DNA from: Methylotenera sp.
GTDB taxonomy: Bacteria; Pseudomonadota; Gammaproteobacteria; Burkholderiales; Methylophilaceae
Length of the DNA: 37,894 nucleotides
Assembly: GCA_027310735.1 (NCBI GenBank)
Contig: DAIDAH010000001.1
Coordinates: 1 to 37,894, forward strand
Direction: 5' to 3'
Shown here: positions 9,818 to 36,428 of the stretch, one piece after another
How positions within the stretch are numbered: the first letter of the stretch is position 1
Layout of the letters: every line of letters begins with the position of its first letter
The notes under the pieces: model-generated
Told to the model about the DNA's origin: nothing
What the model saw: the letters and a program-made list of their open reading frames with translations, nothing else
Databases searched by the model: none
Program-made: the position numbers and the translations under genes

Positions 9818-9827
9818 GGCTCATACC

Positions 9828-15760: not shown

Positions 15761-15776
15761 TACTCATTAAGTAGTA
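15761..15776 (+). promoter_or_regulatory. NarL-type 7-2-7 operator upstream of the PAS-MCP gene
   Basis: TACTCAT-TA-AGTAGTA, close to the NarL consensus TACYYMT-NN-AKRRGTA; TATTTT follows after 37 nt (15814-15819). Confidence 0.65.
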
Positions 15777-15835
15777 TAAGTAATGCAATGATTTTATAGG
15801 ACAATTACTCTAATATTTTAGAAAGTTGATAATTA

Positions 15836-16552
15836 ATGTTACAAAAAAATATTGGCAGCAACGAACCCAAGCAAGACAAAATATACGCTGAATTAATTTC
15901 AGTGAAGAAAAAACTTGAGGACTTAGAGCTTGCTGATTCAGCCATTACTGAAGGCATATGGGTTCTTCACATGGTCAATGGTGATCCTGACCATAAAGAG
16001 AGCACCATAGAATGGTCTAGCCAATTTAGAAGACTTTTAGGATACGAACGAGCGGATGACTTTCCTAACGGATGGGACAGTTGGCTTAAAGCTATCCATG
16101 CTGACGATAAACAACAAGCATTAGACGCCTTTAGCGCCCATTTGAATGACAGTAGCGGTCTCACTCCCTATAACGTTGAGTATAGAATGCAGACTGCAAA
16201 TCGTGGCTATGTATGGTTTCGTGAACGCGCCATTACTGCCCGCAATGATTCCAACTTAGCGCTTCGCTCAGCAGGAGCCATTCGTGACATTAGTGACGAG
16301 AAAACTACCCAAGAATTGCATCAGCTTAATGTTATTCGTAATGAACAGAACATGCGTGAGATCATGAGTGTAGCTGATACTATTAACCAAATCGCGATGC
16401 AAATTAACATACTAGCCATTAATGCAGCAATAGAAGCAGCCCGAGCAGGTGAGGCTGGTCGAGGTTTTGCCGTTGTGGCCAGTGAAGTACGTAAACTGGC
16501 AGAACGTACTACTCAAGCGATGAATGAGATACGTTTGATGGCAAACAAATAG
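15836..16552 (+). CDS. Small soluble PAS-domain chemoreceptor (PAS_3 plus short MCP signalling hairpin)
   Basis: PAS with [10 protein letters not shown]...IHADD...VEYRM...WF; MCP tip [37 protein letters not shown]; no TM segment. Confidence 0.88.
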
Positions 16553-16607
16553 ATGCTCGACTTTAAAAATCTACTTACATTTTGACTCAAAACTCAGAAT
16601 AGTCTCT

Positions 16608-17015
16608 TCAATAAACCACAGATCTAAGCGTAGTAAAAGCTTCCGCTTGAATCAACCATAGGCCGTCAGCTTGCCTCTGCCATTTAGCCGAATACACTCC
16701 AGCAACAAAAACTGTTTTTTTGTCTAATGTGTATTTACCGACCCAATTACCAAGCTCCTCAGCATCTTTTAATAAACTACTTGTATACACTTTTCTGGTT
16801 CGCCTACGGTAAACCGTAATTGGATCATGCAAAAATGTAGCTTGCCAGCGTTGACGTTGCGCTTCAATCCCCTGTGACTGAACGCCACGTCCGGTCAAAA
16901 CATGATAGTCAAAAGTTAAAAATGAACAGATTAAATCCACATCCCGACTTAATATAGCATCGTTGTAGCACTTACGTGCCGACGTGATGTAATTGATGTG
17001 ATCAATACGTTGCAA
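16608..17015 (-). CDS. NTF2/SnoaL-like (DUF4440-like) protein
   Basis: 135 aa with YNDAI..RD, G.W.G and G.YSAKWQRQ.DG.WLI.AE.F patterns; 26 nt downstream of the response regulator; TTG start is uncertain. Confidence 0.7.
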   Translation of the reverse strand: MQRIDHINYITSARKCYNDAILSRDVDLICSFLTFDYHVLTGRGVQSQGIEAQRQRWQATFLHDPITVYRRRTRKVYTSSLLKDAEELGNWVGKYTLDKKTVFVAGVYSAKWQRQADGLWLIQAEAFTTLRSVVY

Positions 17016-17041
17016 ACCTCAAATATCCGCGTGATTTATAG

Positions 17042-17692
17042 TTATTTTTGCCGATGCGCCCATACGGCTGCTTCAAGCCGACTGGTTAGCTTCAGTTTAC
17101 TTAATAAATGTTTAATATGAACTTTTACAGTAGTGTCGCTAATACCCAAGGCACGCGCTATGGTCTTATTATTAAGGCCGTTTGCAAGACATTCAAGAAT
17201 CTCCCGCTCTCGCTCAGTGAGTGCTACATCCTCTTCACTTTTGCTAAGTGTTGGGTGGATTAGCGCATTTTTAAGTATTTCTGTCAGACTTTCATGTAAA
17301 ACAGTTACGCCAAGCATGGCTCTGCTTAAATTATCGCAAAGATCCTCAGGCTCCATATCCTTTAACAAATATCCATCAGCGCCTGCTCGTAAGGCTTCAA
17401 GTAAATCATCCTCTGCATCTGAAACTGTTAACACAATACACTTTGACTCTAACTTCGCATCTTTGATATGAGCAAGTGTTTGCAAGCCATTCATGCCCTT
17501 CATATTTAGATCGATCAAAACAAGGTCTGGCTTCAGTTCCTGAACTAGCAATAAACCTTCAGCACCAGATGCCGCTTCACCTATCACTGAAAATTTTGAA
17601 TCAGCTGAAATCATTTGTATGACGCCTTTTCGAAATAACGCATGGTCATCAATAATAACTACTGTAGTAGGCACTTGCATAAAGTTCTCCAA
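17042..17692 (-). CDS. narL: NarL-family response regulator (REC plus LuxR HTH)
   Basis: IDDHALFRKG, DLNMKGMNG, LTVSD, GADGYLLKDMEPEDL and LTEREREIL...GLNNK.IAR.L.ISDTTVKVHIKHLL.KL are strongly NarL/NarP-like; orthology to nitrate-responsive NarL is not established. Confidence 0.88.
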   Translation of the reverse strand: MENFMQVPTTVVIIDDHALFRKGVIQMISADSKFSVIGEAASGAEGLLLVQELKPDLVLIDLNMKGMNGLQTLAHIKDAKLESKCIVLTVSDAEDDLLEALRAGADGYLLKDMEPEDLCDNLSRAMLGVTVLHESLTEILKNALIHPTLSKSEEDVALTEREREILECLANGLNNKTIARALGISDTTVKVHIKHLLSKLKLTSRLEAAVWAHRQK

Positions 17693-17728
17693 CGTTAAAT
17701 TTTTACTGTTTGAATGACAATGTGATAA

Positions 17729-19558
17729 TTATTTCGGCCGGAATAACAAGCGAACGCGCGTACCGCCAAGGCGTCTAGGAATAACTTCAATAGTGCCTCC
17801 TAGACAATAAGCTCGCTCAGTCATAATAGCCAATCCATAATGATGCGGTTTAGCCTCATCAAAAGAGCAACCTTTACCATCATCATCGATTGTGACAATC
17901 ACATCTCCAGTTGATTGCAGCACAAGCGCAATCGTTACTTTCTCAGCACCTGAGTGACGCACGATATTAGACAAAGCCTCACGCACTACATGCAATAGAT
18001 GAAACTCTTCATTCACGCTTAATCGACATTCCTGCAGTCTATTATCCAGCATGATATTCAAGCTAGATCGTTGTGAAAATTCTTCGATGGCTTCTTCAAG
18101 TACATGATCAAGCCCTCGTATATCCATTTGCACCCTAAACGTGGTGAGTAGCTCTCTTAGCTCGCGATAAGCGTTATCCAGCCCATCTCGCATATCATCA
18201 ACAATTGTTACTGCACCACTTTCAATGAGATTGGAGCCAAAATTTGTTTGCAGGCGTGCCAGTTGAAATTTCATATATGAAAGCGACTGCGCCAAAGAGT
18301 CATGCAACTCTCTAGCAATGACCGCACGCTCCTCAAGCAATGCTACCCGTCGACTTTCTTGCTCTCTAGCCTGAAAACCCATTGAAAGTGCCAGCATTTG
18401 TGCTGTCACTTCAAATAATTGCAACTCAGCACCTTCAAAATAATGATTAGCTTCGGTTTCCAACAGGAGGATCCCCAACCAGCCACTAGGGCTAAGTAAT
18501 GGCACTGTGACACATTGTACACATTCGCCATGAATCAACTTTGTTGTATGACTTACAGCAACAGAGTTTACTGTTTCGTCAAACATACTTTCATCAAAAG
18601 ACAATGGCCAATAGCTTGAAAATAAAGCACGCTGTGCAGAGATGCGCGAACCATTTTCACTAAAAACCAACGCCACATTGCCCACCCCCAAAGTACGCTC
18701 AAGCGAATAAAGCGACTTTTTGATGGTTAATTCACTCAAACCAGAATCGCCAATTAACTTAGCCAGCTTAAACATGAAGTCTTGCGCAAGAATCATTTTC
18801 CGCATTTTTTCTGTGCTGGTGATATTCACCCATTTTGTTTCGACCTGAATGCCTTCTAGCCTTGCAGACAATTCAGCCGTTGATTTTTCCAACATCTCAA
18901 ACTCATCATCATATTGCTGGCTATTCATATTAGAAACTAGATCACTTGGCATCATTGAGAAAACCTTGCCTAACCTAAGAATCAGAATACTCCACGATGT
19001 CAGCATAATGCCAGCTCCAATGCAGAATACGAGAAACAAGCACACTAACTGTAATAATGAAACTACTGACTGCTTAATAACAACATCTTTTTCCGCCGCA
19101 GATATAAACTCATCATAGGCACTTATGACAAGTTGCCCTCGCTCTAGAATAACCTCCTTTGAAAGGCTGTGTACTCGAGCATCAGCAAAGTTATGGTGCG
19201 CTGATTCAAGTTTTTTATAGGCCCTAGCTAAACTCGTATCATTTTGATTCTTAGCCCATATATATGCCGAGTCATCAAAGGCACTCTGGTTCTCATTCAA
19301 GAGATTAAAGTCTGAACTGCTCTCGTTTAAATTATTTTTTAACTTATAAACCTCTAACTTCCAGAGCGATTGATCTTGATATGCATGATGAATAATAGAT
19401 AGATGATCGGGAATATAGTCAAAAAGGAATAATGAACCAGCCTGCATCAATATCACAGACAAAATCATAGATATGACTAAAGTATGCAAGCTTGCATAAA
19501 GTTTGTGTTTCTTTACAAAAACACGTATTAACTTGGAAATACTCAAAATATTTTGCAT
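17729..19558 (-). CDS. NarX/NarQ-like sensor histidine kinase (HisKA_3) with divergent periplasmic domain
   Basis: Two TMs; GAF-like central region with CVQC; H-box EERAVIARELHDSLAQSLSY; AYRELRELLTTFR; REALSNIVRH, DDDGKG and HYGLAIM.ERA. Confidence 0.9.
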   Translation of the reverse strand: MQNILSISKLIRVFVKKHKLYASLHTLVISMILSVILMQAGSLFLFDYIPDHLSIIHHAYQDQSLWKLEVYKLKNNLNESSSDFNLLNENQSAFDDSAYIWAKNQNDTSLARAYKKLESAHHNFADARVHSLSKEVILERGQLVISAYDEFISAAEKDVVIKQSVVSLLQLVCLFLVFCIGAGIMLTSWSILILRLGKVFSMMPSDLVSNMNSQQYDDEFEMLEKSTAELSARLEGIQVETKWVNITSTEKMRKMILAQDFMFKLAKLIGDSGLSELTIKKSLYSLERTLGVGNVALVFSENGSRISAQRALFSSYWPLSFDESMFDETVNSVAVSHTTKLIHGECVQCVTVPLLSPSGWLGILLLETEANHYFEGAELQLFEVTAQMLALSMGFQAREQESRRVALLEERAVIARELHDSLAQSLSYMKFQLARLQTNFGSNLIESGAVTIVDDMRDGLDNAYRELRELLTTFRVQMDIRGLDHVLEEAIEEFSQRSSLNIMLDNRLQECRLSVNEEFHLLHVVREALSNIVRHSGAEKVTIALVLQSTGDVIVTIDDDGKGCSFDEAKPHHYGLAIMTERAYCLGGTIEVIPRRLGGTRVRLLFRPK

Positions 19559-19608
19559 ATTTTATCTAGTTCTTTTTATACTCGTACATTGGCATATTCA
19601 GGTTTAAT

Positions 19609-21000
19609 TTGATGAGTTTATTCATTTTTTCAACACTAATCATCAGCATTAGCTTCTTAACGATTCTTGGTTCATGGTACAGCATTCAAGGGCCATTTTT
19701 ACAACATCTTGTCATGTTAATTTCAGTGGCAGTTGCTATATTTTCCGCCGCGATTGTGATTGCGATACAACCATTGTTATCCTCAAGAAAATCGCGCTTA
19801 CAACATGCTCTACCGCATGAAGCTGCATGGGGAAATGAACTATCTACGGTATTAACCACTCCAGCAGCTGTGCTTGATGGTTTTGTCGTCAAGTTTGTTA
19901 ACACTCCTTTTCTTCAAGCACTAGGCATGGTAGGCATGGCAGACCAAGTTCTAGGCATGCCATTTACCAATTTAATACATCCGGCCGACCATACAAACTT
20001 TGCAGAACTCAGTGTAGAAGCTTCTACAGGTAAGACTAAGAATGAGGCGACTAAAATTCGCATGGTGTGCTCAGATGGCAGCACTTTACCTGCGAATAGC
20101 AGCCTGACCCGCCTACGCGAGGATCGCCGAAACAATCTAATGCTTTTCCAGTTCACACCAATCACTACAGTCAACACCTTAAACAACAATTACGAACCAC
20201 AATTCAATTACCATTCCATTATCGAAAAACTTGAAGAAATAGTATTTCAACTAAATGCAGAAGGAAAAATCATCTTTCTTAACTCTGCATGGGAGAGTTT
20301 GCTTGAATTGAAAACTCAAGATTGTCTTGGTAAACCAATTACCGCGTATGCCCACCCCGAGGATAAACCTATGCTAGAAGCCAGACTAGACTCACTAACA
20401 CAAGGTAAAAGAACTAATTGCACGATTGAAACTCGGCTACTTACAGTGCGCGGCGACCCTACTTGGGTAATCCTCCGAGCAAAAACCACAGCAGCTACAA
20501 CATGGGAAAGAACAAGCGTTATTGGCACCATGATTGACAATCAACAAAATAAAGAAGCTGAGGCAGGCATCATTGCTAACCGACGCGCAGCCAACGCCCT
20601 TTTAGCTCATGTTCCAGGCATGGTTTACCGTTGTAGAAATGACCGTTCATGGAACTTTGAGTTTGTAAATGAAGGTTGCATTGATGTCACTGGGTATGAC
20701 TCCCTCGAGTTAATTAACAATCCAAATATTACCTTCAACCACATTATCCATCCTGACGACAGAGAAGCCGTTTGGGAATCTGTCAATCAGCAAATAAACT
20801 GTGGTGAGAAATTTAAGCTGATTTACCGTATCATTACCCGCAAAGGGGAAACCAAACTGGTACAAGAAAATGGTCGCGGTATTTTCTCCAGCACTGGCGA
20901 ATTATTAGCTTTAGAAGGTTTCATTACAGAGATTCCGGACCAGCGCTATAACGTTACCTCCCCATACTCTCAAAACTCAGGTAATAACAGTACAAAATAA
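19609..21000 (+). CDS. Membrane-anchored triple-PAS protein with no output domain
   Basis: Two N-terminal TMs; three PAS repeats with IHPADH, AHPEDK and IHPDDR; ends shortly after LEGFITEI. TTG at 19609 or ATG at 19612. Confidence 0.82.
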   Translation: MMSLFIFSTLIISISFLTILGSWYSIQGPFLQHLVMLISVAVAIFSAAIVIAIQPLLSSRKSRLQHALPHEAAWGNELSTVLTTPAAVLDGFVVKFVNTPFLQALGMVGMADQVLGMPFTNLIHPADHTNFAELSVEASTGKTKNEATKIRMVCSDGSTLPANSSLTRLREDRRNNLMLFQFTPITTVNTLNNNYEPQFNYHSIIEKLEEIVFQLNAEGKIIFLNSAWESLLELKTQDCLGKPITAYAHPEDKPMLEARLDSLTQGKRTNCTIETRLLTVRGDPTWVILRAKTTAATTWERTSVIGTMIDNQQNKEAEAGIIANRRAANALLAHVPGMVYRCRNDRSWNFEFVNEGCIDVTGYDSLELINNPNITFNHIIHPDDREAVWESVNQQINCGEKFKLIYRIITRKGETKLVQENGRGIFSSTGELLALEGFITEIPDQRYNVTSPYSQNSGNNSTK

Positions 21001-21027
21001 ATAGGACGCAATGCGTCCTATTTATTT
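20995..21027. terminator. Bidirectional intrinsic terminator between the convergent PAS gene and porin gene
   Basis: Perfect inverted repeat AAATAAATAGGACGCA-A-TGCGTCCTATTTATTT. Confidence 0.85.
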
Positions 21028-21084
21028 ATTCAACAGTTAAACAACGACTTTCAATGTTAACTGATTCAAGTTTGAACGCGCATA

Positions 21085-21882
21085 TTAAAATGTACGTTTA
21101 ATGTAACCAATTACGCGATCGCCACCGGTTCCCCACCCTTTAGCATCAACATACCAAGCTTTATTTGCATCAGTTGTTGTGTAATTCAAACCGGCATTCC
21201 ATCCTGTACTACCTGCAATTGAAAAGTCCTTGTTTACTCCCACTAGCCAGTCAGTGTAATTACCATCAGAGTAGTTATGTACCGTTTGATGACCTACATG
21301 CAGCGCTAAATTAAGGTCAACCACTGGTAATGGGTAGGCAACGTTAAATTCGGTATAACCAGAACCGCGGGAATCACCTTTTCCACCGAAAGTATTGTTA
21401 ATGCCAAAAAAGTTTGTGACAGCGTACGAATGCTTCAATGTGAAGTATTTGTAGGTTAAAGCAGCGTTAAGCTCTGTGGTATTTGGTGAACCGCCAGTAC
21501 CGCCTGCATGATTAGCATCAGGATAAAAGAATTGTAGAAAACCAACATTCAAACTTAAACTCTCAGTCAATGGTCGCACATATCCACCATAAAGGTCCAA
21601 CTCTACAGTGTTACCATACAAGGCATCCTGTTGTACGTTACTAGCCCAAACTCCGGCATAAAGGCCACTGCTATGTGAGTAGTCGATACCACCCTGCACA
21701 GCACCACGCTCTCTAGTATATGAAATACCACGGAATGTATAGTCGGTAAAAAAACCAATATTAGCTGTAACAGTATGCGGTGAAGCAGGCTGTTCAGTAG
21801 CAACAGTCTCGTCAGCTGCATATACACTAAAAGTAGAAACGAACATACTAGCCAATAACACTGGCTTTATTAAATTTTTCAT
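21085..21882 (-). CDS. TorF / Gcw_chp family putative outer-membrane porin
   Basis: Signal peptide, DY.FRGIS, AVQGGIDY, G.Y.GVW.SN, ELDLYGGY and a C-terminal Phe. Confidence 0.85.
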   Translation of the reverse strand: MKNLIKPVLLASMFVSTFSVYAADETVATEQPASPHTVTANIGFFTDYTFRGISYTRERGAVQGGIDYSHSSGLYAGVWASNVQQDALYGNTVELDLYGGYVRPLTESLSLNVGFLQFFYPDANHAGGTGGSPNTTELNAALTYKYFTLKHSYAVTNFFGINNTFGGKGDSRGSGYTEFNVAYPLPVVDLNLALHVGHQTVHNYSDGNYTDWLVGVNKDFSIAGSTGWNAGLNYTTTDANKAWYVDAKGWGTGGDRVIGYIKRTF

Positions 21883-21995
21883 ACAACCCCCAAAAGTTAA
21901 TTTAAAATCAATTACCTACACTTACATTAAACAACTTAATGCAATCGCTGATTCACTTGACTCAGTATTGTTTAATTCTTTTAAACTCACGCTTT

Positions 21996-23036
21996 TTATT
22001 CTGCATGAGTGCCGACATCTAAAGCTGCGCCATCATCAAACTTAGCAAGCCAATCCACTACCAGTGGATGAAATTTAGTCATGCCTTTGTATTCGATTAA
22101 ATCTGGATGCATTGTTTTCTGCACCCGGTGCAGGCGCTTAGCCCAGCGAGAGTAAGTAGAAAGATCTTTTAGGTTTATTAAATAGCAACGTATGCTAAAC
22201 ATAATTGCATTGCTACGTGGCAGCCTGAACAGAGTCTGCAACTCAACACGCAGATGTACTAGGTCTGACACATTGTCCGCATTGACCGCGTTTCTGTCCC
22301 CTCCCCATTGCGGATAATTCTCCGGCGAGGTATCAAGGCGCGGATTAATTGTCATCGTCCAATTAAGCCTGCGTACCGGGCTACCAAACTGAAGATTCAA
22401 CAGATGCTTTAAAGCGCGATCCATCACACCTAGCTCAGTAGCACGAGGCACTGGGCCGTGCCACTCTCTCCATGACATACCAACGTTAAATGCAAGAGAC
22501 CAGTCTGCCTGACTCGTTACGATGCCAGCGTCGGCAAATAAAGTCTCTTCACGGTGATCAAGCAACACAAAATCGCCCTGAACTTGCCTGCCCATATAGT
22601 CGAACGGTTCCATTGCCAAAGTTGAACTGTCGCCAAATGTGAAAGTATCTTTAATGCCTAATGGCTTATTTTCCCAAGTCCATACCGATCCATTTTTATT
22701 TAAAGAAAAATGCTGTGGGTAGTCCTGAGATAAAGATTCCATAGTCAACTCTAAGAAATCCCATTGCGCATCCATCATGTGTGGCAGAGCCTGATATCGA
22801 CCAGGATCTTGCTCAAGTGTGATTTTCTTATCAAGACATTCAGCCACATAGTGCTCATCTACATCAAACGTAAACTCACATACAGAGCCAACTTTCCCTT
22901 TAACATGCGGCTCGATATTCACCGAGTACATATACTGATCCTCAGGAAAAGGAAAAGGGAATCGTTTGATTGCCTCGGCAGAGTTACTGTAGGTATAGTC
23001 TTCTCGGAAAGTTTCTTTCTTGAACGTAGATGCCAT
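21996..23036 (-). CDS. dmmC: Dimethylamine monooxygenase haem subunit (DUF3445 / haem-dependent oxidative N-demethylase alpha)
   Basis: ETFREDYTYSNS.EAI.RFPFPF.ED.YMYSVNIEPH, WHGPVP, RRLNWT and LRVELQ.L.RLPRSN motifs; last gene of dmmDABC. Confidence 0.88.
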   Translation of the reverse strand: MASTFKKETFREDYTYSNSAEAIKRFPFPFPEDQYMYSVNIEPHVKGKVGSVCEFTFDVDEHYVAECLDKKITLEQDPGRYQALPHMMDAQWDFLELTMESLSQDYPQHFSLNKNGSVWTWENKPLGIKDTFTFGDSSTLAMEPFDYMGRQVQGDFVLLDHREETLFADAGIVTSQADWSLAFNVGMSWREWHGPVPRATELGVMDRALKHLLNLQFGSPVRRLNWTMTINPRLDTSPENYPQWGGDRNAVNADNVSDLVHLRVELQTLFRLPRSNAIMFSIRCYLINLKDLSTYSRWAKRLHRVQKTMHPDLIEYKGMTKFHPLVVDWLAKFDDGAALDVGTHAE

Positions 23037-23136
23037 AATATTTACCTTTTATTGCCGTTTCAAAATTTCTTAAATAGTGAAATAACGTCGATTAATCAAT
23101 AAAGTCTGATTATTGATTTCGCCTGTTATTACCAAG

Positions 23137-24090
23137 CTAAAGATCGAGCAACAAACGCTTGCCGTTTGCCCGAGATACGCAAGGCATAATCTTTTTACAC
23201 GATACTTTTTCTGAGTCTGTCAAAAAGTGGTCATTGTGTAAAATTGCACCATCAGTCTCCAGCACTTGCAGCTCACACCTGCCGCAAACACCACCGCGAC
23301 ATAAATAATCAGCTTCCACACCTGCAGCTTCTATTGCTTCCAACATGCTCATATCTGCTGGAACCTGAATTTCAATATTGGATTTAGCCAGCTGAATATT
23401 GAACGGCTCACCTACAGGAGGTGAAAGAAACTGTTCGTTATGGATATGTCTTTCCGGCCACCCTAGATTTCGAGCAGTCTCTAAAACAACTGTGACCATA
23501 GAACTAGGCCCGCACACATACACATGTGTGCCTAATGGCTGATCACCTAGTAAGGCTTTAAAGTCTAGTTGTTCACCTTGACTATCTATATAGCAATGCA
23601 AACGACTACTGCAGCTTTTCTTTAGTTGCTCAACAAAAGCACCATGCTCTGGTGAGCGGAATGCGTAGTGCATCTCATAGTCAGCTCCTAATCTATTAAG
23701 GTCTGCAATTTGCGACATAAACGGAGTAATGCCAATACCGCCAGCAATTAAGATATGCTTATGCCCTTTTTTTGCTAATGAAAACAGATTAACTGGGTAT
23801 GTAATCTTAATGGGCATACCGACAGTGACATGCTCATGCATAAATACCGACCCGCCTCTAGAGTTCTCTTGTTTACGCACAGAAATATGATATGCGTCTG
23901 TAGCTTCAGGTGAGCCCATCAGAGAGTAAGGGTTGCGATGTACCCGTCCACCAATATCCATTGATACCACTACATGGCTACCACCTGAAAAGGGCGGCAA
24001 TTTAGAGCCATCTTCTTTTACAAAAGTAAAGTGCTTAACTAATGGCGTTACCTGCTCAACGGCAGCAACTATTGCATTTATCATGCTCAT
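23137..24090 (-). CDS. dmmB: Dimethylamine monooxygenase reductase (PDR/VanB family, flavin plus [2Fe-2S])
   Basis: RNPYSL, SRGGS, AGGIGITP, YVCGP and C-terminal CRGGVCGRC...PC; ATGA overlap with dmmA. Confidence 0.88.
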   Translation of the reverse strand: MSMINAIVAAVEQVTPLVKHFTFVKEDGSKLPPFSGGSHVVVSMDIGGRVHRNPYSLMGSPEATDAYHISVRKQENSRGGSVFMHEHVTVGMPIKITYPVNLFSLAKKGHKHILIAGGIGITPFMSQIADLNRLGADYEMHYAFRSPEHGAFVEQLKKSCSSRLHCYIDSQGEQLDFKALLGDQPLGTHVYVCGPSSMVTVVLETARNLGWPERHIHNEQFLSPPVGEPFNIQLAKSNIEIQVPADMSMLEAIEAAGVEADYLCRGGVCGRCELQVLETDGAILHNDHFLTDSEKVSCKKIMPCVSRANGKRLLLDL

Positions 24091-24689
24091 GGATATATCT
24101 CCTCAATCTCTGGTAATTGGCCTGGAGATTCCGCATCAACCATCAATCCCATATAGGCACCCAAATGGCGTGAGAAATGATCGCGCACAAACAACATACG
24201 TTCACAACTTGAGCACTTACCAATGTTAGTAGTGATGTTGTGCGTAATAGCCTTGCAATGTACGCAATAAATAGACCGTGCCAGCGTACCGGTCAACTCT
24301 TTCATAATGTCAGCATCTTCAATGCCAAATTCTTTAACTGCCTCAGCTACAGCCCAGATAAAGCCTTCAGAACCAGCCACATAAATACGTAAACCCATCC
24401 GTTTGGTCGGCATAATCCTTTTTAATAGACTCACCACCTCTTGCTCTGACTTCAACAAATGCAAATCTTCAGGCACAACTTTTTTTAGCGTGATCGCAAA
24501 ATTTGCATCAATATCTGAGTGCTCATAGAGCGTCGTGACTGGCTGTTGCGGGTGCATTTGTTGAAATAACTTGATCGCCGCCAACCCACCCTGACCTTGT
24601 GCCACGACCAAATGTGAGGTTGCCTTTTCATGCCAAACTAAGGAAGTGTAAATAGGCTTACTTTTAATCCAATATCCGCGCTCCATCAT
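24087..24689 (-). CDS. dmmA: Dimethylamine monooxygenase subunit DmmA
   Basis: IKSKP.Y, MGLRIYVAGSEGFI, CVHCK...CSSC...VRDHFSR.LGAYMG; translationally coupled to dmmD and dmmB. Confidence 0.88.
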   Translation of the reverse strand: MMERGYWIKSKPIYTSLVWHEKATSHLVVAQGQGGLAAIKLFQQMHPQQPVTTLYEHSDIDANFAITLKKVVPEDLHLLKSEQEVVSLLKRIMPTKRMGLRIYVAGSEGFIWAVAEAVKEFGIEDADIMKELTGTLARSIYCVHCKAITHNITTNIGKCSSCERMLFVRDHFSRHLGAYMGLMVDAESPGQLPEIEEIYP

Positions 24690-25807: not shown

Positions 25808-25865
25808 TTTCTTCCCAAGTCATCCGACGTAATTTTTTAAAAACATCTTTTACAATATGGTTTAC

Positions 25866-25953
25866 ATACTATCGGAATAGAAAAACGTCGAAAATTCTCT
25901 TGAAGGTGTACTACCAAAGAGGTATTAAAAGTGGTATTAAAGGGTGTGGCACA
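25866..25953 (-). promoter_or_regulatory. dmmDABC promoter with NarL-type 7-2-7 box and predicted -35/-10
   Basis: Minus strand: TACCTCT-TT-GGTAGTA (25924-25909), 14 nt, TTTTCG, 17 nt, TAGTAT (25871-25866); extra heptamer in a 12-bp direct repeat at 25918-25941. Confidence 0.7.
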
Positions 25954-25991
25954 AAAAAATAGTGTGAACCACAATCATATGATTCACACTA
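25953..25991 (-). terminator. Intrinsic terminator after etfA
   Basis: Inverted repeat TAGTGTGAA...TTCACACTA followed on the minus strand by T7. Confidence 0.75.
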
Positions 25992-26007
25992 CATTGACTA
26001 ATACTTC

Positions 26008-26973: not shown

Positions 26974-26975
26974 GC

Positions 26976-27770
26976 TTATGCTCCCTTAAATTCGTTAATA
27001 ATCTGGATGATTTTGGCTGCTTGCTCTGCCAGCGAACCTTCAATCATTTCTGCGCGACCTTTTTCTGGGATATACATGCGGCGTACACGTGACATTGAAT
27101 TTCCGGCGCCAACATCACCAGTTGACAGGCCAACATCTGCCAGTGAAAGCTCTTCAATAGGCTTGGCAGCGGCTTGCTTGATACCTCGTAGCGATGCATA
27201 CCGTGGCTTATTAATGCCAAGCTGTATGGTTAATACCGCAGGGCAATTAATTTCAACCTCTTGCAACATGCCGCCTTCAAGCTCACGACGAACCACAGCT
27301 TGACTAGCGCCGGGCTGATATTTAAAATCCGCGACGACTGCCGCATGTGGCCAGTTCAAATAAGCTGCGGTAGAGATACCTGTTGAGGCATAGGAGTGAT
27401 CAGATGACTGTACGCCGGCAAAAACAAGATCTGGCGCTTCTTTTTTGGCAACAGCGGCTAAAATTTTACCAATAGCTATTGCATCAGAACCCTCAATACT
27501 GTCATCCCAAACTCTAATTGCGCGGTCTGCGCCTTTAGCCAGACATTTACGCAAACTTTCATCCACGCGATCAGGTCCAATAGAAACTACAACGACTTCA
27601 ACCTCAGAGTCACTGGACTCTTTGATTTTCATTGCTTCTTCAAGTGAAAAATCATCCCACTCATTCAAGTCATACAGCAGGAAGTCTTCGTCTACATCTT
27701 TTTCATCAGCACGGATTTCAAAATCCTCATCTAATGCTGCGACTTGTTTTACTGCTATCAATATCTTCAT
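26976..27770 (-). CDS. etfB: Electron transfer flavoprotein beta subunit
   Basis: MKILIAVKQV, LNEWDDFSLEEA, GADRA, RRELEGG and INKPRYASLRGI; closely matches recalled M. methylotrophus ETF beta. Confidence 0.96.
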   Translation of the reverse strand: MKILIAVKQVAALDEDFEIRADEKDVDEDFLLYDLNEWDDFSLEEAMKIKESSDSEVEVVVVSIGPDRVDESLRKCLAKGADRAIRVWDDSIEGSDAIAIGKILAAVAKKEAPDLVFAGVQSSDHSYASTGISTAAYLNWPHAAVVADFKYQPGASQAVVRRELEGGMLQEVEINCPAVLTIQLGINKPRYASLRGIKQAAAKPIEELSLADVGLSTGDVGAGNSMSRVRRMYIPEKGRAEMIEGSLAEQAAKIIQIINEFKGA

Positions 27771-27814
27771 ATCTTCTATCTCCTAATAACTTCAATACTT
27801 ACCATCATTGTTAA

Positions 27815-29233
27815 TCACCTAACGGCTGACTCACAAAGCCTACTTGCCATCCACCTAAACACCATAAATCTGACTTGAAAATCTGGATCGTCTCGCAAAG
27901 ACCACTTATCCTTCCCTTTTAACCTAACGCTTCCTACTAGCATCAATCGATGTAAATAGTAGGGATCTTCCAGCAAAGGCAACAAGGTTTTACGCGTTGC
28001 ATATTTATTTAAAATCACACCCCTACGTATATCTAGCTCTGGTGATGCAGCCAAATCTTGCAGAATCATTTGCGGAGTGTGCGGGTTATTGGCAACACCA
28101 CTCAGTACGTCAATATTGTTATCTGTAGCCAGCGCTTCCATCACCACCTTTGGTGACTTGTGTTGATAAGCTACTGCAGAGCGCACCCATGCGCTTTGGT
28201 CCTTAGCCAACGCTTTCAACAACCCAACCGGACAGCATGTATTTCTAGCTACAGCCCGCCTTACATCCACCTCAAAATCAACTGAAAGCCTCTCGAGCAC
28301 CTTACGTGGTATCCGTGGATTACGCGCAAGCCACTGGCGCACCCAAGAGTCTTTGTCGTTCGCTAAGGCATTAATACTTGCCGCTGTTAAATCTAACCTT
28401 GCTGCAATTGCACGCCTGACTAGACAACTATCATCAAGAAGCAATCTCATCACCAACACTTCTGGTGACGCTACATTTGAAGCTACACCACACCTAACAG
28501 CGACATCATGACTTGCTGCTAAATTGACCAATGTTTCGCTAGAGACTCTCGCGTTAACTGCCAACTTACGCATGATCTTTACATCTTTGTCGCTTACAGA
28601 TTCATCAATAACCGCCTGCGAGCATCTAGCGTGACCGATTACTGCAGCTCGCACATACTCATCACCTTTGGCATAAATAAAATCAAGTAACTCTGTCGAT
28701 GTGGATGGGTTCTCAGCCAAATTTTTGTACAAAACTCCAATTATTTTGCTGTTTGCCATTCGCTCCAGCATCACACTTAACACCTCTGCACTTGCCGCAG
28801 GATTTCTACTTACCGCTTTTAAGCTTTGCTCATCCTCACTCAACTGCACGATGCTGGCCAAGACACTTACCGGGCTATGCAGGTGTTGCGCAATCAACAC
28901 AGTAAAATCTGAATTTAGTTGCCTGACATCAGCTTGACCAACATAAAGCTGAGACAATGCCTTAGCAGTTGCATTTGGATTCTTATCTAACCGTATGACT
29001 ACGCCACTATCGCCATTACCAGCACTACTATTTGCAATTGCCTCCAGTACAGATGCTGGGGTATGTTCCCATCTGGCCAGCAATAATGTATTACGCCTTT
29101 TATCAAACATAAGCGCTTCCAAACGTCTCTTATCGCGCCCTGTTGCAATGTTATGAACCGCTGCCGCACAGTATGGATCACCAGCTTTGATCGCTAACCT
29201 AACCAAATCAGTGGCTTTAGCTGGCATCCCCAT
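27815..29233 (-). CDS. Helical repeat protein with 26-aa LRV/HEAT-like repeats, function unknown
   Basis: About nine or more tandem xxVRxxVAxNxxxPxxxLxxLAxDxx units. Start placed at ATG 29233, 1 nt after the upstream TGA, rather than at 29296. Confidence 0.78.
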   Translation of the reverse strand: MGMPAKATDLVRLAIKAGDPYCAAAVHNIATGRDKRRLEALMFDKRRNTLLLARWEHTPASVLEAIANSSAGNGDSGVVIRLDKNPNATAKALSQLYVGQADVRQLNSDFTVLIAQHLHSPVSVLASIVQLSEDEQSLKAVSRNPAASAEVLSVMLERMANSKIIGVLYKNLAENPSTSTELLDFIYAKGDEYVRAAVIGHARCSQAVIDESVSDKDVKIMRKLAVNARVSSETLVNLAASHDVAVRCGVASNVASPEVLVMRLLLDDSCLVRRAIAARLDLTAASINALANDKDSWVRQWLARNPRIPRKVLERLSVDFEVDVRRAVARNTCCPVGLLKALAKDQSAWVRSAVAYQHKSPKVVMEALATDNNIDVLSGVANNPHTPQMILQDLAASPELDIRRGVILNKYATRKTLLPLLEDPYYLHRLMLVGSVRLKGKDKWSLRDDPDFQVRFMVFRWMASRLCESAVR

Positions 29234-29234
29234 A

Positions 29235-31361
29235 TCAAACGGCTTGCGGCAAGCCTTCCCACGCTTCATATTCAATACATTCATCAATAAGTTCAATTAG
29301 CTCGCGTACGATGAACTTACCTTCAAATCCAGAGGTTTTTAGTGCATCCTCAAACATCGTTAGATCTTTAGGGCATGAAACTACAAACACCTGTAAACCC
29401 TCAATTTGCCCAGCTTCTTTCATTCTATTGGCTGAAGGTTTTTCGATGCCGACTGGATCCGGTATCCAGATGCGACCACCACCAGCACCGCAACAAAAAG
29501 AGTTGTCACGATTACGTGCCATTTCCACCAGTTCGCAGCCAAGCAGTTTCAGTACATCACGCGGTGCGTCATAACCTTTGTTATAGCGGCCAAGATGGCA
29601 TGGGTCATGGAAAGTCACACGGTAATCGAGCTTCTTTTTCAGTTTGATCTGACCGCTCTCTATAAGCTGCTTCACTTTTGTCGTGTAATGCTCAATCTCA
29701 AACTTACCGCCGAAATCAGGATATTCATTACGGATAGTATTGAATGAGTGAGGGTCTGTTGTGACAATTGACTTAAAGTCACAAGATTGAATAGTCCCAA
29801 TATTAGACGAAGCTAATAACTCATATAGCCCCTCCTCTCCCACTCGGCGCACATCATTACCAGCATTGAGTTCAGCCTCAAAAAGCAAGCCAAAATTCAC
29901 ACCCGCGTGATGCATCAATCGAGCAAAAGACTGTGTTACCTTTTGGTTACGCGGATCAAACGAAGCGTAGTCACCAACAAACCAAAGTACATCCACTGGT
30001 TCTTTACGTGCATCTTTAATTTCAAATGGCAACTCTTTAGCCCAGGCAGCCCTCTTGCGTTTTGATTCGCCAAATGAGTTACCTGTTTTATGGATAGTTT
30101 GCAGCGTTTTTTCCAGCAAAGGCTCCATTTCCCCAGCCTCAACCAGATTACGTCGCATTTGTACAATAATAGGCACATGCTCAACGGCTACAGGACATAT
30201 CTCGACGCAGGCCAGACAAGTACGGCATGACCATAATGTCTCCATAAATACCTGTCCAATATCTTTACCATGAATATCTAACTCAGCTTCTTTCGGGATT
30301 TCTTTTGCGCTCAGCGCATGGTTAGCAAACTCACGCAATGAAAGAATCACATCTCTAGGTGACAATGGTGCACCTACGGCATTGGCAGGGCATGCTTCCT
30401 GGCAACGGCCACACTTGGTACAAGCATCAAGATGCAATAGGTTTTTCCAAGTTAAATCGGTAATTGTCTTGTAGCCCGCGGTTTTTTGCTCATCCGGTAC
30501 TCGAGGCAACCTTTTACCGGCAAGAGGATCCTTGAACATCAAGGATGTTGCAGCAGTGAAAATATGCTTGATTTTAGTATAGGGAATACAAGCTATAAAA
30601 GTCAGCGACAATAAGCCATGAAACCACCACAGGCCTACGCGTAAGTTACTGGCACCTTCAGCAGTTAATCCTATCAACTGCATAAGTTGTGCAAGTAAAG
30701 CGCCAACTGGCGACCATATACGATAATCCCAGACTTCTGGCCGACCACTTAACCAAACTAGACGCGTTGCTTCAAGGACGAAACCTGTAACACCAATCAG
30801 AATGAATGACCATAGAAAAGCCCAGTCTTCTCGCCGATATTGGTTGCGATCAAAATCAGGATCACCAACCTGCCTATCCACCCTTTTATAATCTAACTTA
30901 GGAAGGTTAAGCCATTTACGGCGATACATCATGTAAATCAAACCTACAATTAACCCGATACCAGCCAAATCCAACACAAGGGAAAATAATAGATAAAAGT
31001 TACCGTACCAAAACTGCACGCCAAATAACGGACGCAGTATGTCGTACTCTAGCGTAATGGTAGACGTACCTATAAACAGCAGTACGAAGCCAAAGAAAAT
31101 TAGGCCATGTGCACGACCAGCACTTTTATCACGTCGCACTAATGTGCGATGCGATACCATCGTTTTAGCCATATCAATAAAGCGGTGTAGCAAATCGTTC
31201 CATGAGCCATCAGACTTACCGCGACGGTATTTTCGCAACTGGACATAGACGCCATAAATAAAAACCGCAATGGCTACATAACCAATTGCATAAAATAAAT
31301 ATATCGCCTGTGGCTGAAAGTTTTCAAACAACACTCTGGTGATTTCTTTAGGATTATTCAT
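29235..31361 (-). CDS. Membrane Fe-S oxidoreductase (cytochrome b-like TM domain, two 4Fe-4S motifs, CCG domains); EMO/EtfD/FadF-like
   Basis: About 5 TMs with His residues (RAHGL, WFHGL, IKHIF); CTKCGRCQEACP and CRTCLACVEICP; HDPCHLGR, SFCCGAGGG and VSCPKD. Confidence 0.88.
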   Translation of the reverse strand: MNNPKEITRVLFENFQPQAIYLFYAIGYVAIAVFIYGVYVQLRKYRRGKSDGSWNDLLHRFIDMAKTMVSHRTLVRRDKSAGRAHGLIFFGFVLLFIGTSTITLEYDILRPLFGVQFWYGNFYLLFSLVLDLAGIGLIVGLIYMMYRRKWLNLPKLDYKRVDRQVGDPDFDRNQYRREDWAFLWSFILIGVTGFVLEATRLVWLSGRPEVWDYRIWSPVGALLAQLMQLIGLTAEGASNLRVGLWWFHGLLSLTFIACIPYTKIKHIFTAATSLMFKDPLAGKRLPRVPDEQKTAGYKTITDLTWKNLLHLDACTKCGRCQEACPANAVGAPLSPRDVILSLREFANHALSAKEIPKEAELDIHGKDIGQVFMETLWSCRTCLACVEICPVAVEHVPIIVQMRRNLVEAGEMEPLLEKTLQTIHKTGNSFGESKRKRAAWAKELPFEIKDARKEPVDVLWFVGDYASFDPRNQKVTQSFARLMHHAGVNFGLLFEAELNAGNDVRRVGEEGLYELLASSNIGTIQSCDFKSIVTTDPHSFNTIRNEYPDFGGKFEIEHYTTKVKQLIESGQIKLKKKLDYRVTFHDPCHLGRYNKGYDAPRDVLKLLGCELVEMARNRDNSFCCGAGGGRIWIPDPVGIEKPSANRMKEAGQIEGLQVFVVSCPKDLTMFEDALKTSGFEGKFIVRELIELIDECIEYEAWEGLPQAV

Positions 31362-31451
31362 TTAGCATCGCCTATTGAAAGGAGTTTATTAAGTTTTTAA
31401 TCGATAACCTTGTAAGGTCTGATTACGTAGAGATTCTTGACTAGCATTTAA

Positions 31452-31487
31452 AGCATGGCTACCGAATCATTATTCAGTAGCCATGCT
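31452..31487. terminator. Stem-loop directly after tmd (weak terminator or mRNA-stabilising hairpin)
   Basis: Perfect 11-bp arms AGCATGGCTAC / GTAGCCATGCT; only a short U-run follows on the minus strand. Confidence 0.65.
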
Positions 31488-31495
31488 GGCAACAT

Positions 31496-33727
<2,232 letters not shown>

Positions 33728-33729
33728 CT

Positions 33730-33788
33730 ATTCTCATTGCGATGCCATATTCAAACAATTACCATCATGGCTTACTACTAAGGTGTTA
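33730..33788 (-). promoter_or_regulatory. tmd promoter with NarL-type 7-2-7 box
   Basis: Minus strand: TAACACC-TT-AGTAGTA (33788-33773), 14 nt, TTGTTT, 17 nt, GAGAAT (33735-33730). Confidence 0.65.
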
Positions 33789-33806
33789 CTTGAGTGTGTT
33801 GCAGAA

Positions 33807-33863
33807 AAGCAATAAAAAAGCGGGCGAGGTATAAACGTCCCCTCACCCGCTTTTTTATTGCTT
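33807..33863. terminator. Strong intrinsic terminator after the APC permease
   Basis: AAGCAATAAAAAAGCGGGCGAGG...CCTCACCCGCTTTTTTATTGCTT inverted repeat with A/T tracts on both sides. Confidence 0.88.
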
Positions 33864-33866
33864 ACG

Positions 33867-33895
33867 GCAGGCCTATAGACATGCAATAGGCCTGC
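33867..33895. repeat. Second hairpin immediately after the permease stop codon
   Basis: Perfect 10-bp arms GCAGGCCTAT / ATAGGCCTGC around a 9-nt loop. Confidence 0.7.
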
Positions 33896-33904
33896 GAAAG
33901 ACAC

Positions 33905-35605
33905 TTACAAGCTATGCATATACCAAACTAAAGCAACTCCAGTCATTAGCGCAACATATGGCAATACACCAGCCTTGTTACTAGAGCCGCCCTCTTCATG
34001 CCCATCAATATACATATCTTCCAGCATTTGTTTAGGAAATTTACCCTTATCCTGAACGTAGTGACGGTACATAAATACTGGAATAATCAATGCAGCAAAG
34101 ATTAAGCCTGTTTTCAGTGTTCCTTCTCCCCAAATATCTGCACCAAGACCCATGATACCCAAGTTAACGAAACCCAGAACACCACCTAAAGCCAGAATTA
34201 AAGTGGGCGCTTTGTAAGGACGCTCCCAATTTGCACGATCAATTCTATGAATCCAACCAGAGTTAAGATTTAGGAAGTTGAAAATGATATAACCAATATT
34301 TGAAGCTGCAAGAATAAACACATAGTCAGACATCATAAGCAGAATCAAGTTGAAACACAGGTCTGTCCACATAGCGCTGGTCGGGGCACCATGATCATTT
34401 ACTTTAGACAGGTACTTTGGTAACCAACCATCAACCGATGCTTGATACAGAGTGCGTGAAGAGCCCGCCATTGATGTCATGATAGCGAGTAGTAAAGCCA
34501 GCACCATCATGATTACCATCACGTTTGCCACAAAAGCACCGCCGCCAACCATATCTGATAGCGCTTTTGCTACCCCCATACCACTATAAATTGAAGACTC
34601 CAGCATACCGTCATACACTGCTGGCGTAGTCACGACACCAGCAGCATCTACAACCGCCGGAGATACCATGTGGCCTAAACCTAAATGACTTTGAAAAGCA
34701 ATAGGTACTAAGGTAAATACCGCAATGCAGAGTAAGCCTGAATAAAAAATAGCTTTAAATGTATCTGTTTTCGGATTTTTAAATTCACGCGTATAACACA
34801 CTGCAGTTTCAAAACCATAAGTAGACCAAGCGGCAATAAAGAGGCCACCTGCCATAAGCTTCCAGCCTTCTATTCCCCATATCCCATCAATCACATTGCC
34901 TGCAGCATCGTGGGCGAGTGGTGCCAGTGGAAGGAAATTTGCCTGCGCAATATCACCTGTTAATAGCGGCACTAGGCCAATCAACATTAGTGGGATAAGC
35001 GCGATTACGCCTAGAATCATCGTGGTTTTAGCTGAACGTAAAATACCTCCATGCTGAACGGTAAACACCGTAAGCAAAACAGCCGCGCCCAGAATAAATG
35101 TTGCGTTAATCCTAAGTGCCAGGCCATCTTTTATCATGCCTAAATCAAGCAGTGTTATCTGCCAAGTGTTAATCACAGCATCTGGTGCAAACAAAGCATT
35201 TAACATGTACCCTGCCGCCAAACCAGAACCAATAGCGAGAACCGGCGACCAAGCAAACCAATTACACCATACCGATACAGGCGCAATAAACTTACTATAC
35301 TTAACCCAAGCCACAGCACCGTAAATAGATGCACCGCCAGACTTGTGCGGGAACAAACCTGCAATTTCCGCGTAAGTAAATGCCTGAATGAAACCAAAAG
35401 CAATCGAAATTGCCCAGATCATCCACGCAGGCTTACCCACTGTAGCTGCAATAGCACCTATTGAAAAAAGAACAAGCGCAGGAACGCCGCTTGCCACCCA
35501 GAACGCACCTTGCCAGCCAATCTTTCTATGTAGCGTTGCATTTTGCGCGGCTATGTTTTCAGAAAGATCAGCTGAAATTGCATCAACTGAAGAATTTACG
35601 CTCAA
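33905..35605 (-). CDS. APC-superfamily permease, probable methylated-amine transporter
   Basis: About 12 TMs; LHRKIGWQGAFWVASGVP, YAEIAGLFPHKSGG, YGFETA and SSRTLYQ...DGWLP; TTG start after AAGGGG. Substrate is inferred from context. Confidence 0.85.
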   Translation of the reverse strand: MSVNSSVDAISADLSENIAAQNATLHRKIGWQGAFWVASGVPALVLFSIGAIAATVGKPAWMIWAISIAFGFIQAFTYAEIAGLFPHKSGGASIYGAVAWVKYSKFIAPVSVWCNWFAWSPVLAIGSGLAAGYMLNALFAPDAVINTWQITLLDLGMIKDGLALRINATFILGAAVLLTVFTVQHGGILRSAKTTMILGVIALIPLMLIGLVPLLTGDIAQANFLPLAPLAHDAAGNVIDGIWGIEGWKLMAGGLFIAAWSTYGFETAVCYTREFKNPKTDTFKAIFYSGLLCIAVFTLVPIAFQSHLGLGHMVSPAVVDAAGVVTTPAVYDGMLESSIYSGMGVAKALSDMVGGGAFVANVMVIMMVLALLLAIMTSMAGSSRTLYQASVDGWLPKYLSKVNDHGAPTSAMWTDLCFNLILLMMSDYVFILAASNIGYIIFNFLNLNSGWIHRIDRANWERPYKAPTLILALGGVLGFVNLGIMGLGADIWGEGTLKTGLIFAALIIPVFMYRHYVQDKGKFPKQMLEDMYIDGHEEGGSSNKAGVLPYVALMTGVALVWYMHSL

Positions 35606-35765
35606 TTTAAGTCCCCTTTTTTAAATGTCCCAACACAACCCTAAAAGTACTATTCGAACTTACTTTATAGGACTGCTGAATTGGGTGATACAAAAGAATT
35701 AGATCTTGTCGCCTAGTTAAAAAACTTACATGCGAACCAGCGATAAGGCTTTCACATTGGCTTCT

Positions 35766-35825
35766 ATTTTGCTGATAAACCTTACTTGATTACAATTCTC
35801 ATTACGGATTACTCTATAAGTGGTA
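35766..35825 (-). promoter_or_regulatory. Permease promoter with NarL-type 7-2-7 box
   Basis: Minus strand: TACCACT-TA-TAGAGTA (35825-35810), 14 nt, TTGTAA, 18 nt, CAAAAT. Confidence 0.6.
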
Positions 35826-35853
35826 GTTGGCCATATTTTTATATGTATTATTC

Positions 35854-35936
35854 TGTGCCACTAATAAAAAATATAAATACTTCTTTGGTATTACACCTTC
35901 AAGATAGTTTTCTATGATTGCTGCCAGCACTAATAT
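35854..35936 (+). promoter_or_regulatory. Globin/transporter operon promoter; near-copy of the dmm promoter
   Basis: TACTTCT-TT-GGTATTA (35878-35893), 14 nt, TTTTCT, 17 nt, TAATAT (35931-35936). Confidence 0.7.
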
Positions 35937-36392: not shown

Positions 36393-36428
36393 AAAAATTC
36401 AAACTTATAATAAGCGGAATGCGAACTA

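Follow-up and report, generated by a model that had tools for sequence, protein, structure and literature searches.

Methylophilaceae are common consumers of methylated amines in freshwater and soil, and the trimethylamine dehydrogenase (TMADH) of Methylophilus with its electron transfer flavoprotein (ETF) is a classic enzyme system. For Methylophilus, tmm and dmd-tmd are mentioned in the available part of PMC8399692, which gives no regulator (papers are cited here by PMC number). In Ruegeria pomeroyi, TmaR (AraC family) and TmoR (GntR family), often encoded within the cluster, regulate the trimethylamine (TMA) and dimethylamine (DMA) genes tmm, tdm and dmm (PMC13390433). For NarL of Escherichia coli, the yeaR complex assigns the residues that read DNA and those that contact the C-terminal domain of the RNA polymerase alpha subunit (alpha-CTD); its site is centred at -43.5, just 5' of the -35 element, and alpha-CTD lies on DNA near -43 (PMC10853779). 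Here we analyse a stretch of 37,894 nucleotides from Methylotenera sp. (the window; contig C111 of a 2.76-Mb assembly, completeness 99%), in which the genes for DMA monooxygenase (dmm), TMADH (tmd), an APC permease and a globin lie next to a triad of regulatory genes encoding a NarL-like response regulator, a NarX/NarQ-like histidine kinase and a membrane-anchored PAS protein. We propose, with a probability of roughly 0.8, that this regulator binds a 30-bp operator before these genes and activates the uptake and oxidation of methylated amines, the kinase, which lacks the nitrate P-box, sensing dimethylamine with the aid of the PAS protein. No description of a regulator or motif for the amine locus was found in the literature searched, which left most subscription journals and RegPrecise-type databases outside its coverage.

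A preliminary description of the window had proposed that five promoters share a positionally fixed 16-bp box of the NarL 7-2-7 type. All five 16-mers are found at the coordinates it gave, and a TT-initial hexamer does begin 14 nt past the box in the dmmD, tmd, permease and globin promoters. The 14 nt regarded there as a spacer are conserved sequence and form a second, overlapping 7-2-7 box. The operator accordingly comprises 30 bp with two overlapping boxes 14 bp apart, of which box 2 is degenerate and abuts the -35 element:

25895..25924, minus strand: dmm tandem operator (box 1 25909-25924, box 2 25895-25910; matrix 23.3+20.5 bits), with -35 at 25889-25894, -10 at 25866-25871 and a predicted transcription start at ~25859
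33759..33788, minus strand: tmd tandem operator (box 1 33773-33788, box 2 33759-33774; 20.5+19.1 bits), with -35 at 33753-33758, -10 at 33730-33735 and a predicted start at ~33723
35796..35825, minus strand: permease tandem operator (box 1 35810-35825, box 2 35796-35811; 16.9+23.5 bits), with -35 at 35790-35795, -10 at ~35766-35771 and a predicted start at ~35760
35878..35907, plus strand: globin-operon tandem operator (box 1 35878-35893, box 2 35892-35907; 18.7+14.7 bits), with -35 at 35908-35913, -10 at 35931-35936 and a predicted start at ~35943
15761..15776, plus strand: single 7-2-7 NarL-type box of the gene for a PAS-type chemoreceptor (methyl-accepting chemotaxis protein, MCP), no second box; candidate -35 at 15777-15782, -10 at 15800-15805 and, if the box is yeaR-like, a predicted start at ~15812

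Assuming ordinary sigma-70 spacing, box 1 is centred near -57.5 and box 2 near -43.5 in the four tandem promoters. The earlier placement of the box near -57, together with a shared -10 spacing, holds for these four and fails for the MCP gene, where the geometry is different and the '-10' at 37-38 nt is AT-rich sequence. The MCP box scores 18.2 bits as a 16-mer and -28 bits on extension; it is possibly better read as a near-consensus single box abutting the -35 element (TAAGTA, 17 nt, GACAAT), which would place it near -43.5 as at yeaR. Its status is uncertain because four other, unrelated 16-mers in the genome score about equally (17.0-18.2 bits). That it might be the second half of a tandem operator was rejected, the 16-mer upstream scoring -21.9 bits. 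Among relatives, mcp lies within box-led operons or, in a single instance, is preceded by a weaker tandem site of its own.

Conservation was followed in 80 stretches; outside the window's own genome, tmd or the kinase gene is present in 57 genomes of the family, and 56 of these supplied the stretches. The search used a 16-bp matrix built from the five window boxes (threshold 10 bits, up to 400 nt upstream, genes with less than 300 nt upstream excluded, counts including the window). A box of at least 10 bits was present upstream of tmd in 40 of 41 cases, of dmmD in 21 of 21, of the permease gene in 53 of 61, of the globin gene in 19 of 24 and of dmd in 9 of 10, and upstream of dmmA in 14 of 37, where dmmA leads the operon. 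The sole tmd miss has its box before fes instead, the five unboxed globin genes sit within the dmm operon, and two second permease copies, those that were checked, come after a boxed folE2-ribBA unit. The same search found no box before etfA (0/35), etfB (0/34), lrv (0/36), dmmB (0/39) and dmmC (0/40) and one before fes (1/39). For the regulatory genes themselves the counts were 0/55 (narL), 0/53 (PAS gene) and 1/52 (kinase); autoregulation in the family relatives was rejected on these figures, the single hit being an 11-bit 16-mer.

De novo expectation maximisation (EM) on the relatives' promoters (116 redundancy-filtered of 154, window excluded) recovered a 34-bp element in ~91% of them, with the consensus TACCaCcTaaGtAGTA-AnCCnTaanGAGAATTGT, in which T31 is the first base of the -35 hexamer. 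In 67% of 190 non-redundant sites of relatives a -10 of the form xAxxxT starts at position 54, which is 37 nt after the box, and any other start between positions 37 and 79 accounts for at most 17%, a bias well outside what chance would give. The consensus sequences differ by promoter class. The GAGAATTGT part was compared with the consensus sequences of FNR and Fur, and such a reading was discarded because positions 35-53 are unconstrained. When a 34-bp matrix made from the relatives' sites was run over the window's genome, 5.5 million strand positions yielded four sites of at least 25 bits, which are those of dmmD, tmd, permease and globin. The next-best sites precede a gene for an EutQ-like cupin (24.7 bits) and folE2 (14.7 bits), both of which are boxed in relatives.

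Several properties of the element point to a second regulator site. Positions 15-30 constitute a degenerate 7-2-7 box with the central TA common to both boxes, and are the only other offset with a near-zero score in a scan with a symmetric matrix. Column by column, box 2 resembles box 1 to a degree that was equalled in 1 of 20000 permutations, and the dyad symmetry of the 30-mer in 0 of 20000. The offset is fixed: among 376 strand hits of box 1 the extension occurs at shift 0 in 168 and at other shifts in 2 (the matrix was trained at shift 0), and variant box spacings, looked for among the same 376 hits, were not found. We therefore consider it rather likely, though well short of certain, that both boxes would be bound by the regulator. 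Alternatively, only box 1 would be its site, with class I activation from about -57.5, and the conserved 14 nt would represent a polymerase contact (alpha-CTD or an extended -35), the site of another factor or a third half-site as for ComA of Bacillus subtilis. This is possible, if doubtful. In its favour are the degeneracy of box 2 and its 2-bp overlap with box 1, the position of alpha-CTD in the yeaR complex (PMC10853779), and ComA, which pairs an inverted repeat with a differently arranged adjoining motif (PMC4797271). Against it are the dyad symmetry, the column-wise mirroring of box 1 by box 2, and some folE2 and cupin promoters that have lost the outer half of box 1 and kept box 2. Furthermore, NarL activated from -44.5, -67.5 and -77.5 at ogt and poorly from most other positions; the part of PMC7419079 available does not extend to whether -57.5 was among them.

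The regulatory triad lies between the chemoreceptor gene and the dmm operon:

17042..17692, minus strand: NarL-family response regulator (D61; K176, R180; K190, V191, H192, K194), predicted operator-binding activator
17729..19558, minus strand: NarX/NarQ-like histidine kinase with 2 predicted transmembrane segments and H419, without nitrate P-box
19612..21000, plus strand (divergent): membrane-anchored PAS protein with 2 predicted transmembrane segments and three PAS domains, lacking an output domain and predicted to act as an accessory sensor

The regulator exceeds the NCBIfam NarL equivalog cut-off (NF007935, 279 bits > 250), and the phosphoacceptor D61 is invariant in 34 of 34 aligned rows. 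Alignment to 1A04 showed that the base-reading residues are retained, K190, V191, H192 and K194 corresponding to NarL K188, V189, H190 and K192, and that K176 and R180 match the alpha-CTD contacts K174 and R178. An operator pattern was then searched in 301 family genomes with the reversed pattern as control. At least two matches occurred in 53 of the 55 kinase-positive vs 2 of the 246 kinase-negative genomes, and the two exceptions, which have tmd, are incomplete at 90% and 78%. One match each was found in 14 kinase-negative genomes, and the reversed control gave single matches only, in 16 of 301. The triad is patchy within genera, e.g. 10/40 in the window's genus, and follows the catabolic genes: the kinase is present in 54 of the 57 genomes with tmd or dmmC, and tmd or dmmC in 54 of the 55 with the kinase. 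In 54 canonical NarX loci, many of them beside narK or narG, 72 strand hits of box 1 were found and none carries the extension; box 1 is a generic NarL site. The assignment of the boxes to the local NarL-like regulator, which the preliminary description had inferred, gains support from the NarL cut-off, the base-reading residues and this co-occurrence, with activation being a prediction. In all likelihood the local regulator is the operator-binding protein, and it very probably acts as an activator. As an additional observation, second, diverged NarL-like genes with PAS-type neighbours occur inside amine clusters, beside tmd (L044:3641-8418, G251) and between tdm and tmm together with a kinase gene (L201:11716-14383, G010).

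The genes in the window served by these promoters are:

15836..16552, plus strand: soluble PAS-MCP chemoreceptor, probable member of the regulon (Pfam; context in relatives)
21085..25807, minus strand: dmmD-dmmA-dmmB-dmmC-torF-like porin operon, DMA monooxygenase (profile matches)
26008..33688, minus strand: operon of tmd (TMADH), an Fe-S membrane protein, an LRV protein, etfB and etfA
33905..35605, minus strand: APC permease (above the NCBIfam trimethylamine N-oxide permease cut-off, 852 > 690)
35970..37801, plus strand: operon of a globin, an EamA-family transporter and a 92-aa protein (Pfam)

The tmd product is TMADH, with a full-length match to PDB 1DJN (residues 2-730, 1610.8 bits); the letters B and C in the dmm operon follow the gene order dmmDABC. 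A regulon of uptake, oxidation, electron-transfer, globin and taxis genes had been proposed. The operator indeed precedes all but the last, the taxis gene having a different promoter architecture. Beyond the window, it is present in relatives before tmm (5/5), tdm-like genes (5), folE2 (8/8) and EutQ-like cupin genes (9/13), including genomes with a TMA monooxygenase in place of TMADH, where it precedes tmm and the tdm-like gene. Because it stands before non-homologous enzymes for TMA and DMA, the operator tracks the chemistry and not the enzyme. Methylamine-pathway promoters carried none (mgdA 0/12, gmaS 0/5). The reading of the locus is hence supported in a refined form: the operator is a tandem one, the system has three genes, it follows the use of dimethylamine rather than TMADH, and the MCP architecture differs.

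Further candidate members were noted. In the window's genome, the EutQ-like cupin gene (G000:C372:22150, minus strand) and folE2-ribBA (G000:C340:1440, minus strand) are probable members outside the window that would serve folate and flavin supply; the folE2 site has lost the outer half of box 1 and retained box 2. A single 16-mer of 17.3 bits without the standard extension lies ~110 nt upstream of a Fae-like gene (G000:C329:6089, plus strand) and may mark a single-box target. An Amt-family protein scoring under the ammonium-transporter cut-off has an operator in four loci (L070:12366, L072:16855, L074:12987, L122:13286) and is a candidate methylated-amine channel. In L040, L042, L043 and L046-L050, dmmABC stand directly under the operator in an operon without dmmD, the tetrahydrofolate (THF)-dependent subunit. 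Two candidate small RNAs were also detected. The first (L128:8267-8430, also L117:8232 and L047-L050, loci of which some may share a genome) has a tandem operator with -35 and -10 leading into a conserved ~95-nt non-coding stretch between dmmC and the 3' end of the PAS gene, where a hairpin with a CU-rich loop comes first and a GC-rich hairpin resembling a terminator second; it had no Rfam match and was not found in the window's genome. The second, in genus g17 (L191:225, L192:217, L195:3074, minus strand), has an operator leading into a different conserved ~90-nt unit in two gene contexts; at the end of the unit is a hairpin with a U-run that resembles a terminator and is best seen in L192 and L195.

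The kinase has a HisKA_3 and HATPase core (Pfam) and, with its two hydrophobic segments, the architecture of a four-helix sensor with two transmembrane segments and a HAMP domain. Among named relatives, those with the most similar kinases belong to Methylotenera. The model of its N-terminal part is closest to the NarQ fragment comprising transmembrane, sensor and HAMP regions, a weak to middling match: the top six rows in Foldseek are NarQ (TM-score ~0.5-0.6, E 0.045-0.11), as is the top VIA row with Z 11.8, which is middling for a helical bundle. The kinase has no PF13675 hit and does not reach the cut-off for either NarX or NarQ; searching all genomes for PF13675 gave no information, since PilJ-type chemoreceptors match too. 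The periplasmic nitrate P-box, the motif with the nitrate-binding arginine, was not matched in 26 of 26 triad-type kinases (L111-L132, L140, L141, L147, L150), while most canonical NarX proteins match. By this test, the kinase is predicted not to be a nitrate sensor. A link to nitrate respiration was likewise not found in that narG was undetected in 43 of the 55 triad genomes, the neighbours of the triad being dmm, tmd, tmm or dmd. Conserved periplasmic residues are few (D47, Y48, P50, W66, W101, D158), acidic or aromatic and mostly near the membrane; that they might accommodate a cationic amine is speculation. In every contig that is long enough, the PAS gene is adjacent and divergent. Fold searches with its product returned generic multi-PAS hits only, and the ESM Atlas generic PAS clusters; a role of this protein in signalling is probable.

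Seven triad genomes have dmmC and neither tmd nor tmm, and the triad is retained whichever DMA-forming or -consuming enzyme is present, the dehydrogenase dmd included. Dimethylamine is the likeliest signal because it is the only substrate common to all enzyme arrangements, and we slightly favour it as the one sensed directly. Published expression data fit a cluster that is co-regulated and depends on an activator: in Methylovorus glucosotrophus SIP3-4 the dmm, tmd and permease genes, which are syntenic, go from 0-7 reads per kilobase per million (RPKM) on methanol to 10-189 on methylamine (PMC3728764, Table S10), a 4- to 38-fold rise of the cluster, and the regulatory trio goes up 1.7- to 3-fold, with the N-methylglutamate genes at 1400-7000 RPKM on methylamine being far above the cluster (PMC3728764). 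These data bear on another explanation, in which regulon and regulator are the same and the signal is either a catabolite (methylamine, formaldehyde, methylene-THF) or the oxygen or redox state perceived via the three-PAS protein. The rise on methylamine is in line with it, as are the response of Ruegeria TmaR to a methylamine catabolite (PMC13390433), the globin and the O2-dependent monooxygenase in the regulon, and the three cytoplasmic PAS domains, whose fold is common to DosP, PpsR and FixL (generic PAS similarity only). However, the methylamine genes mgdA and gmaS lack the operator, expression of the cluster on methylamine is low compared with the N-methylglutamate genes, and the triad is constant across the DMA enzymes. 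We regard such a signal as unlikely, though a serious contender.

Far less probable is that the boxes are bound by the nitrate-responsive NarL of the genome and couple amine oxidation to nitrate respiration. The same 16-mer does occur in canonical nar loci, and a DMA-dehydrogenase-like paralogue (dmd, ~64% identical to TMADH) is found together with narG in 11 of 13 genomes. However, 41 of the 43 triad genomes without detected narG still have at least two operators, single-contig genomes included, the four nar contigs of the genome, which are fragmentary, contain no 16-mer of at least 6 bits, and its nitrate-type NarL has I and Q at the positions of NarL V189 and K192. In the nitrate-type NarL proteins (G000:C151, C194; L066), positions 189 and 192 are I/V and Q, respectively, and NarX has a short chain of 488 aa and a variant form of the P-box; from these features, nitrate-type NarL here probably reads a different site. 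Canonical narK-narX intergenic NarL boxes (L151, L175, L176, L186, L142-L144) often have a further GGTAG/GGTGGTA half-site 2-3 nt on, a tandem layout different from that of the amine operator. In G238, which has no triad, the dmd-like paralogue adjoins narXL and narG without a strong operator; the association of this paralogue with narG suggests anaerobic amine oxidation tied to nitrate respiration. Finally, chance matches in AT-rich DNA or duplicated promoter copies without a common regulator, for which one might invoke the near-identity of the dmmD and globin promoters over ~35 bp and the 9 matches vs 3.3 expected of a loose 16-bp pattern, are effectively refuted by the EM recovery, the four-site genome specificity and the reversed-pattern control, and also run against the promoter-class-specific consensus and the co-occurrence with the kinase.

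Together, the preferred reading may be formulated as a mechanism. The amine would be sensed by the kinase, and the phosphoryl group would pass from H419 to D61, both residues being present and the chemistry being that expected from NarX/NarL. The regulator would occupy the strong distal box near -57.5 and thereby aid occupancy of the weak proximal box near -43.5, from which RNA polymerase would be recruited via alpha-CTD, as by NarL at yeaR; a hand-off from one box to the other and a contact of polymerase with box 2 stay in contention. The predicted regulon takes in the permeases, the oxidation of TMA (tmd or tmm/tdm) and of DMA (dmm or dmd), ETF, and the supply of folate and flavin; the monomethylamine pathway would lie outside it. 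More tentatively, and at somewhat less than even odds, a nitrate system would have been rewired into a three-component dimethylamine sensor whose unusual overlapping double operator is read by a cooperative dimer of dimers and also insulates the system from nitrate NarL; the module would have spread across beta-, gamma- and alphaproteobacterial methylotrophs and would control TMA and DMA catabolism, cofactor supply and lineage-specific small RNAs.

Several points weigh against the proposed regulation. Box 2 deviates from box 1 in having TT instead of TA at its outer end and in favouring C at half-site position 5, and two dimers on a common central TA may clash sterically. The relatives' sites behind the 34-bp matrix were initially chosen using the window boxes, and the relatives are kin, which makes the cross-genome counts non-independent. 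The periplasmic domain has few invariant residues, and a ligand pocket is thus only presumed. The genome also has a nitrate-type narX/narL pair next to narK, divided between contigs C151 and C194, and narG elsewhere. As to expression, the SIP3-4 gene identities follow from annotation order, which is that of loci L124 and L125 of Methylovorus; q is ~0.1 for the RNA-seq changes, and the conditions are methanol and methylamine (PMC3728764). Methylamine itself lifts the cluster somewhat, and in Methylotenera versatilis 301 the cluster is weakly expressed and its slight rise is not significant (PMC3728764, Tables S6, S7 and S10).

The triad with operators is also found outside the family, in Methylophaga and Hyphomicrobium. 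The operators stand before dmmD, the cupin gene and an Amt-like gene in the former (L122), and before dmd in the latter (L131; none in L123). Paraburkholderia has weaker operators before narL and dmmD in L140 and L147 and none in L141 and L150. A quick tree places the kinases of Methylophaga and Hyphomicrobium within those of Methylophilaceae, apart from the narG-type ones (SH-aLRT 99 for the group), which suggests transfer, the tree being unrooted; Paraburkholderia kinases are ambiguous in position, and row L044, an open reading frame without family hit on a very long branch, is to be disregarded. A sucrose cluster adjoins the amine locus in the window (7865-12958: fructokinase, sucrose-phosphate synthase/phosphatase, alpha-amylase-family protein), and a sucrose-phosphate synthase (sps) gene lies near the triad in Methylophaga L122 too.

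With regulator, sites at base-pair level, predicted starts and regulon named, induction by TMA and DMA becomes directly testable in cultured strains. The locus would be a clear case of the repurposing of a NarX sensor, with an operator geometry absent from 54 canonical NarX loci, and is a candidate biosensor for di- or trimethylamine. Moreover, the motif would place in amine metabolism a set of genes so far uncharacterised (cupins, Amt-like and EamA transporters, porin, globin, small RNAs).

Compared with described systems, the amine locus resembles NarX/NarQ-NarL/NarP of E. coli in the regulator residues and NarL cut-off, in the 7-2-7 box and in the proximal box near -43.5 as at yeaR, and its kinase is like NarX/Q in the cytoplasmic part, with a modelled sensor-region fold nearest to NarQ. 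Unlike NarX and NarQ, the kinase is without a P-box, scores under both cut-offs and is constantly paired with a divergent PAS gene; the two boxes, offset by 14 bp, overlap, whereas the sites at ogt are 33 bp apart, at -44.5 and -77.5 (PMC7419079), and the targets are amine-catabolic. TmaR and TmoR likewise control TMA and DMA genes but are one-component regulators of unrelated families that serve the monooxygenase route of Alpha- and Gammaproteobacteria from the sea, and TmaR also controls gmaS-mgs and mgd in response to a methylamine catabolite (PMC13390433). AraC and GntR regulators gave no hit among the 27 window proteins scanned, the remaining genome not having been searched for them. SecR of Aminobacter is likewise of the NarL family (atypical, NarL/RcsB-like) and needed for growth on methylamines, but is an orphan without phosphorylation site or kinase; it governs the serine cycle and recognises inverted repeats of CCYACCCG (PMC13199381). 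ComA is a NarL-family activator that also combines a strong canonical with a degenerate promoter-proximal site, the second site being, however, a separate direct repeat and not an overlapping inverted repeat, and its function is in quorum sensing (PMC4797271). None of the described amine regulators TmaR, TmoR and SecR is a NarX/NarL-type pair; by analogy, the system described here would work like NarX/NarL, with a regulator that is, by its predicted features, a member of the NarL family.

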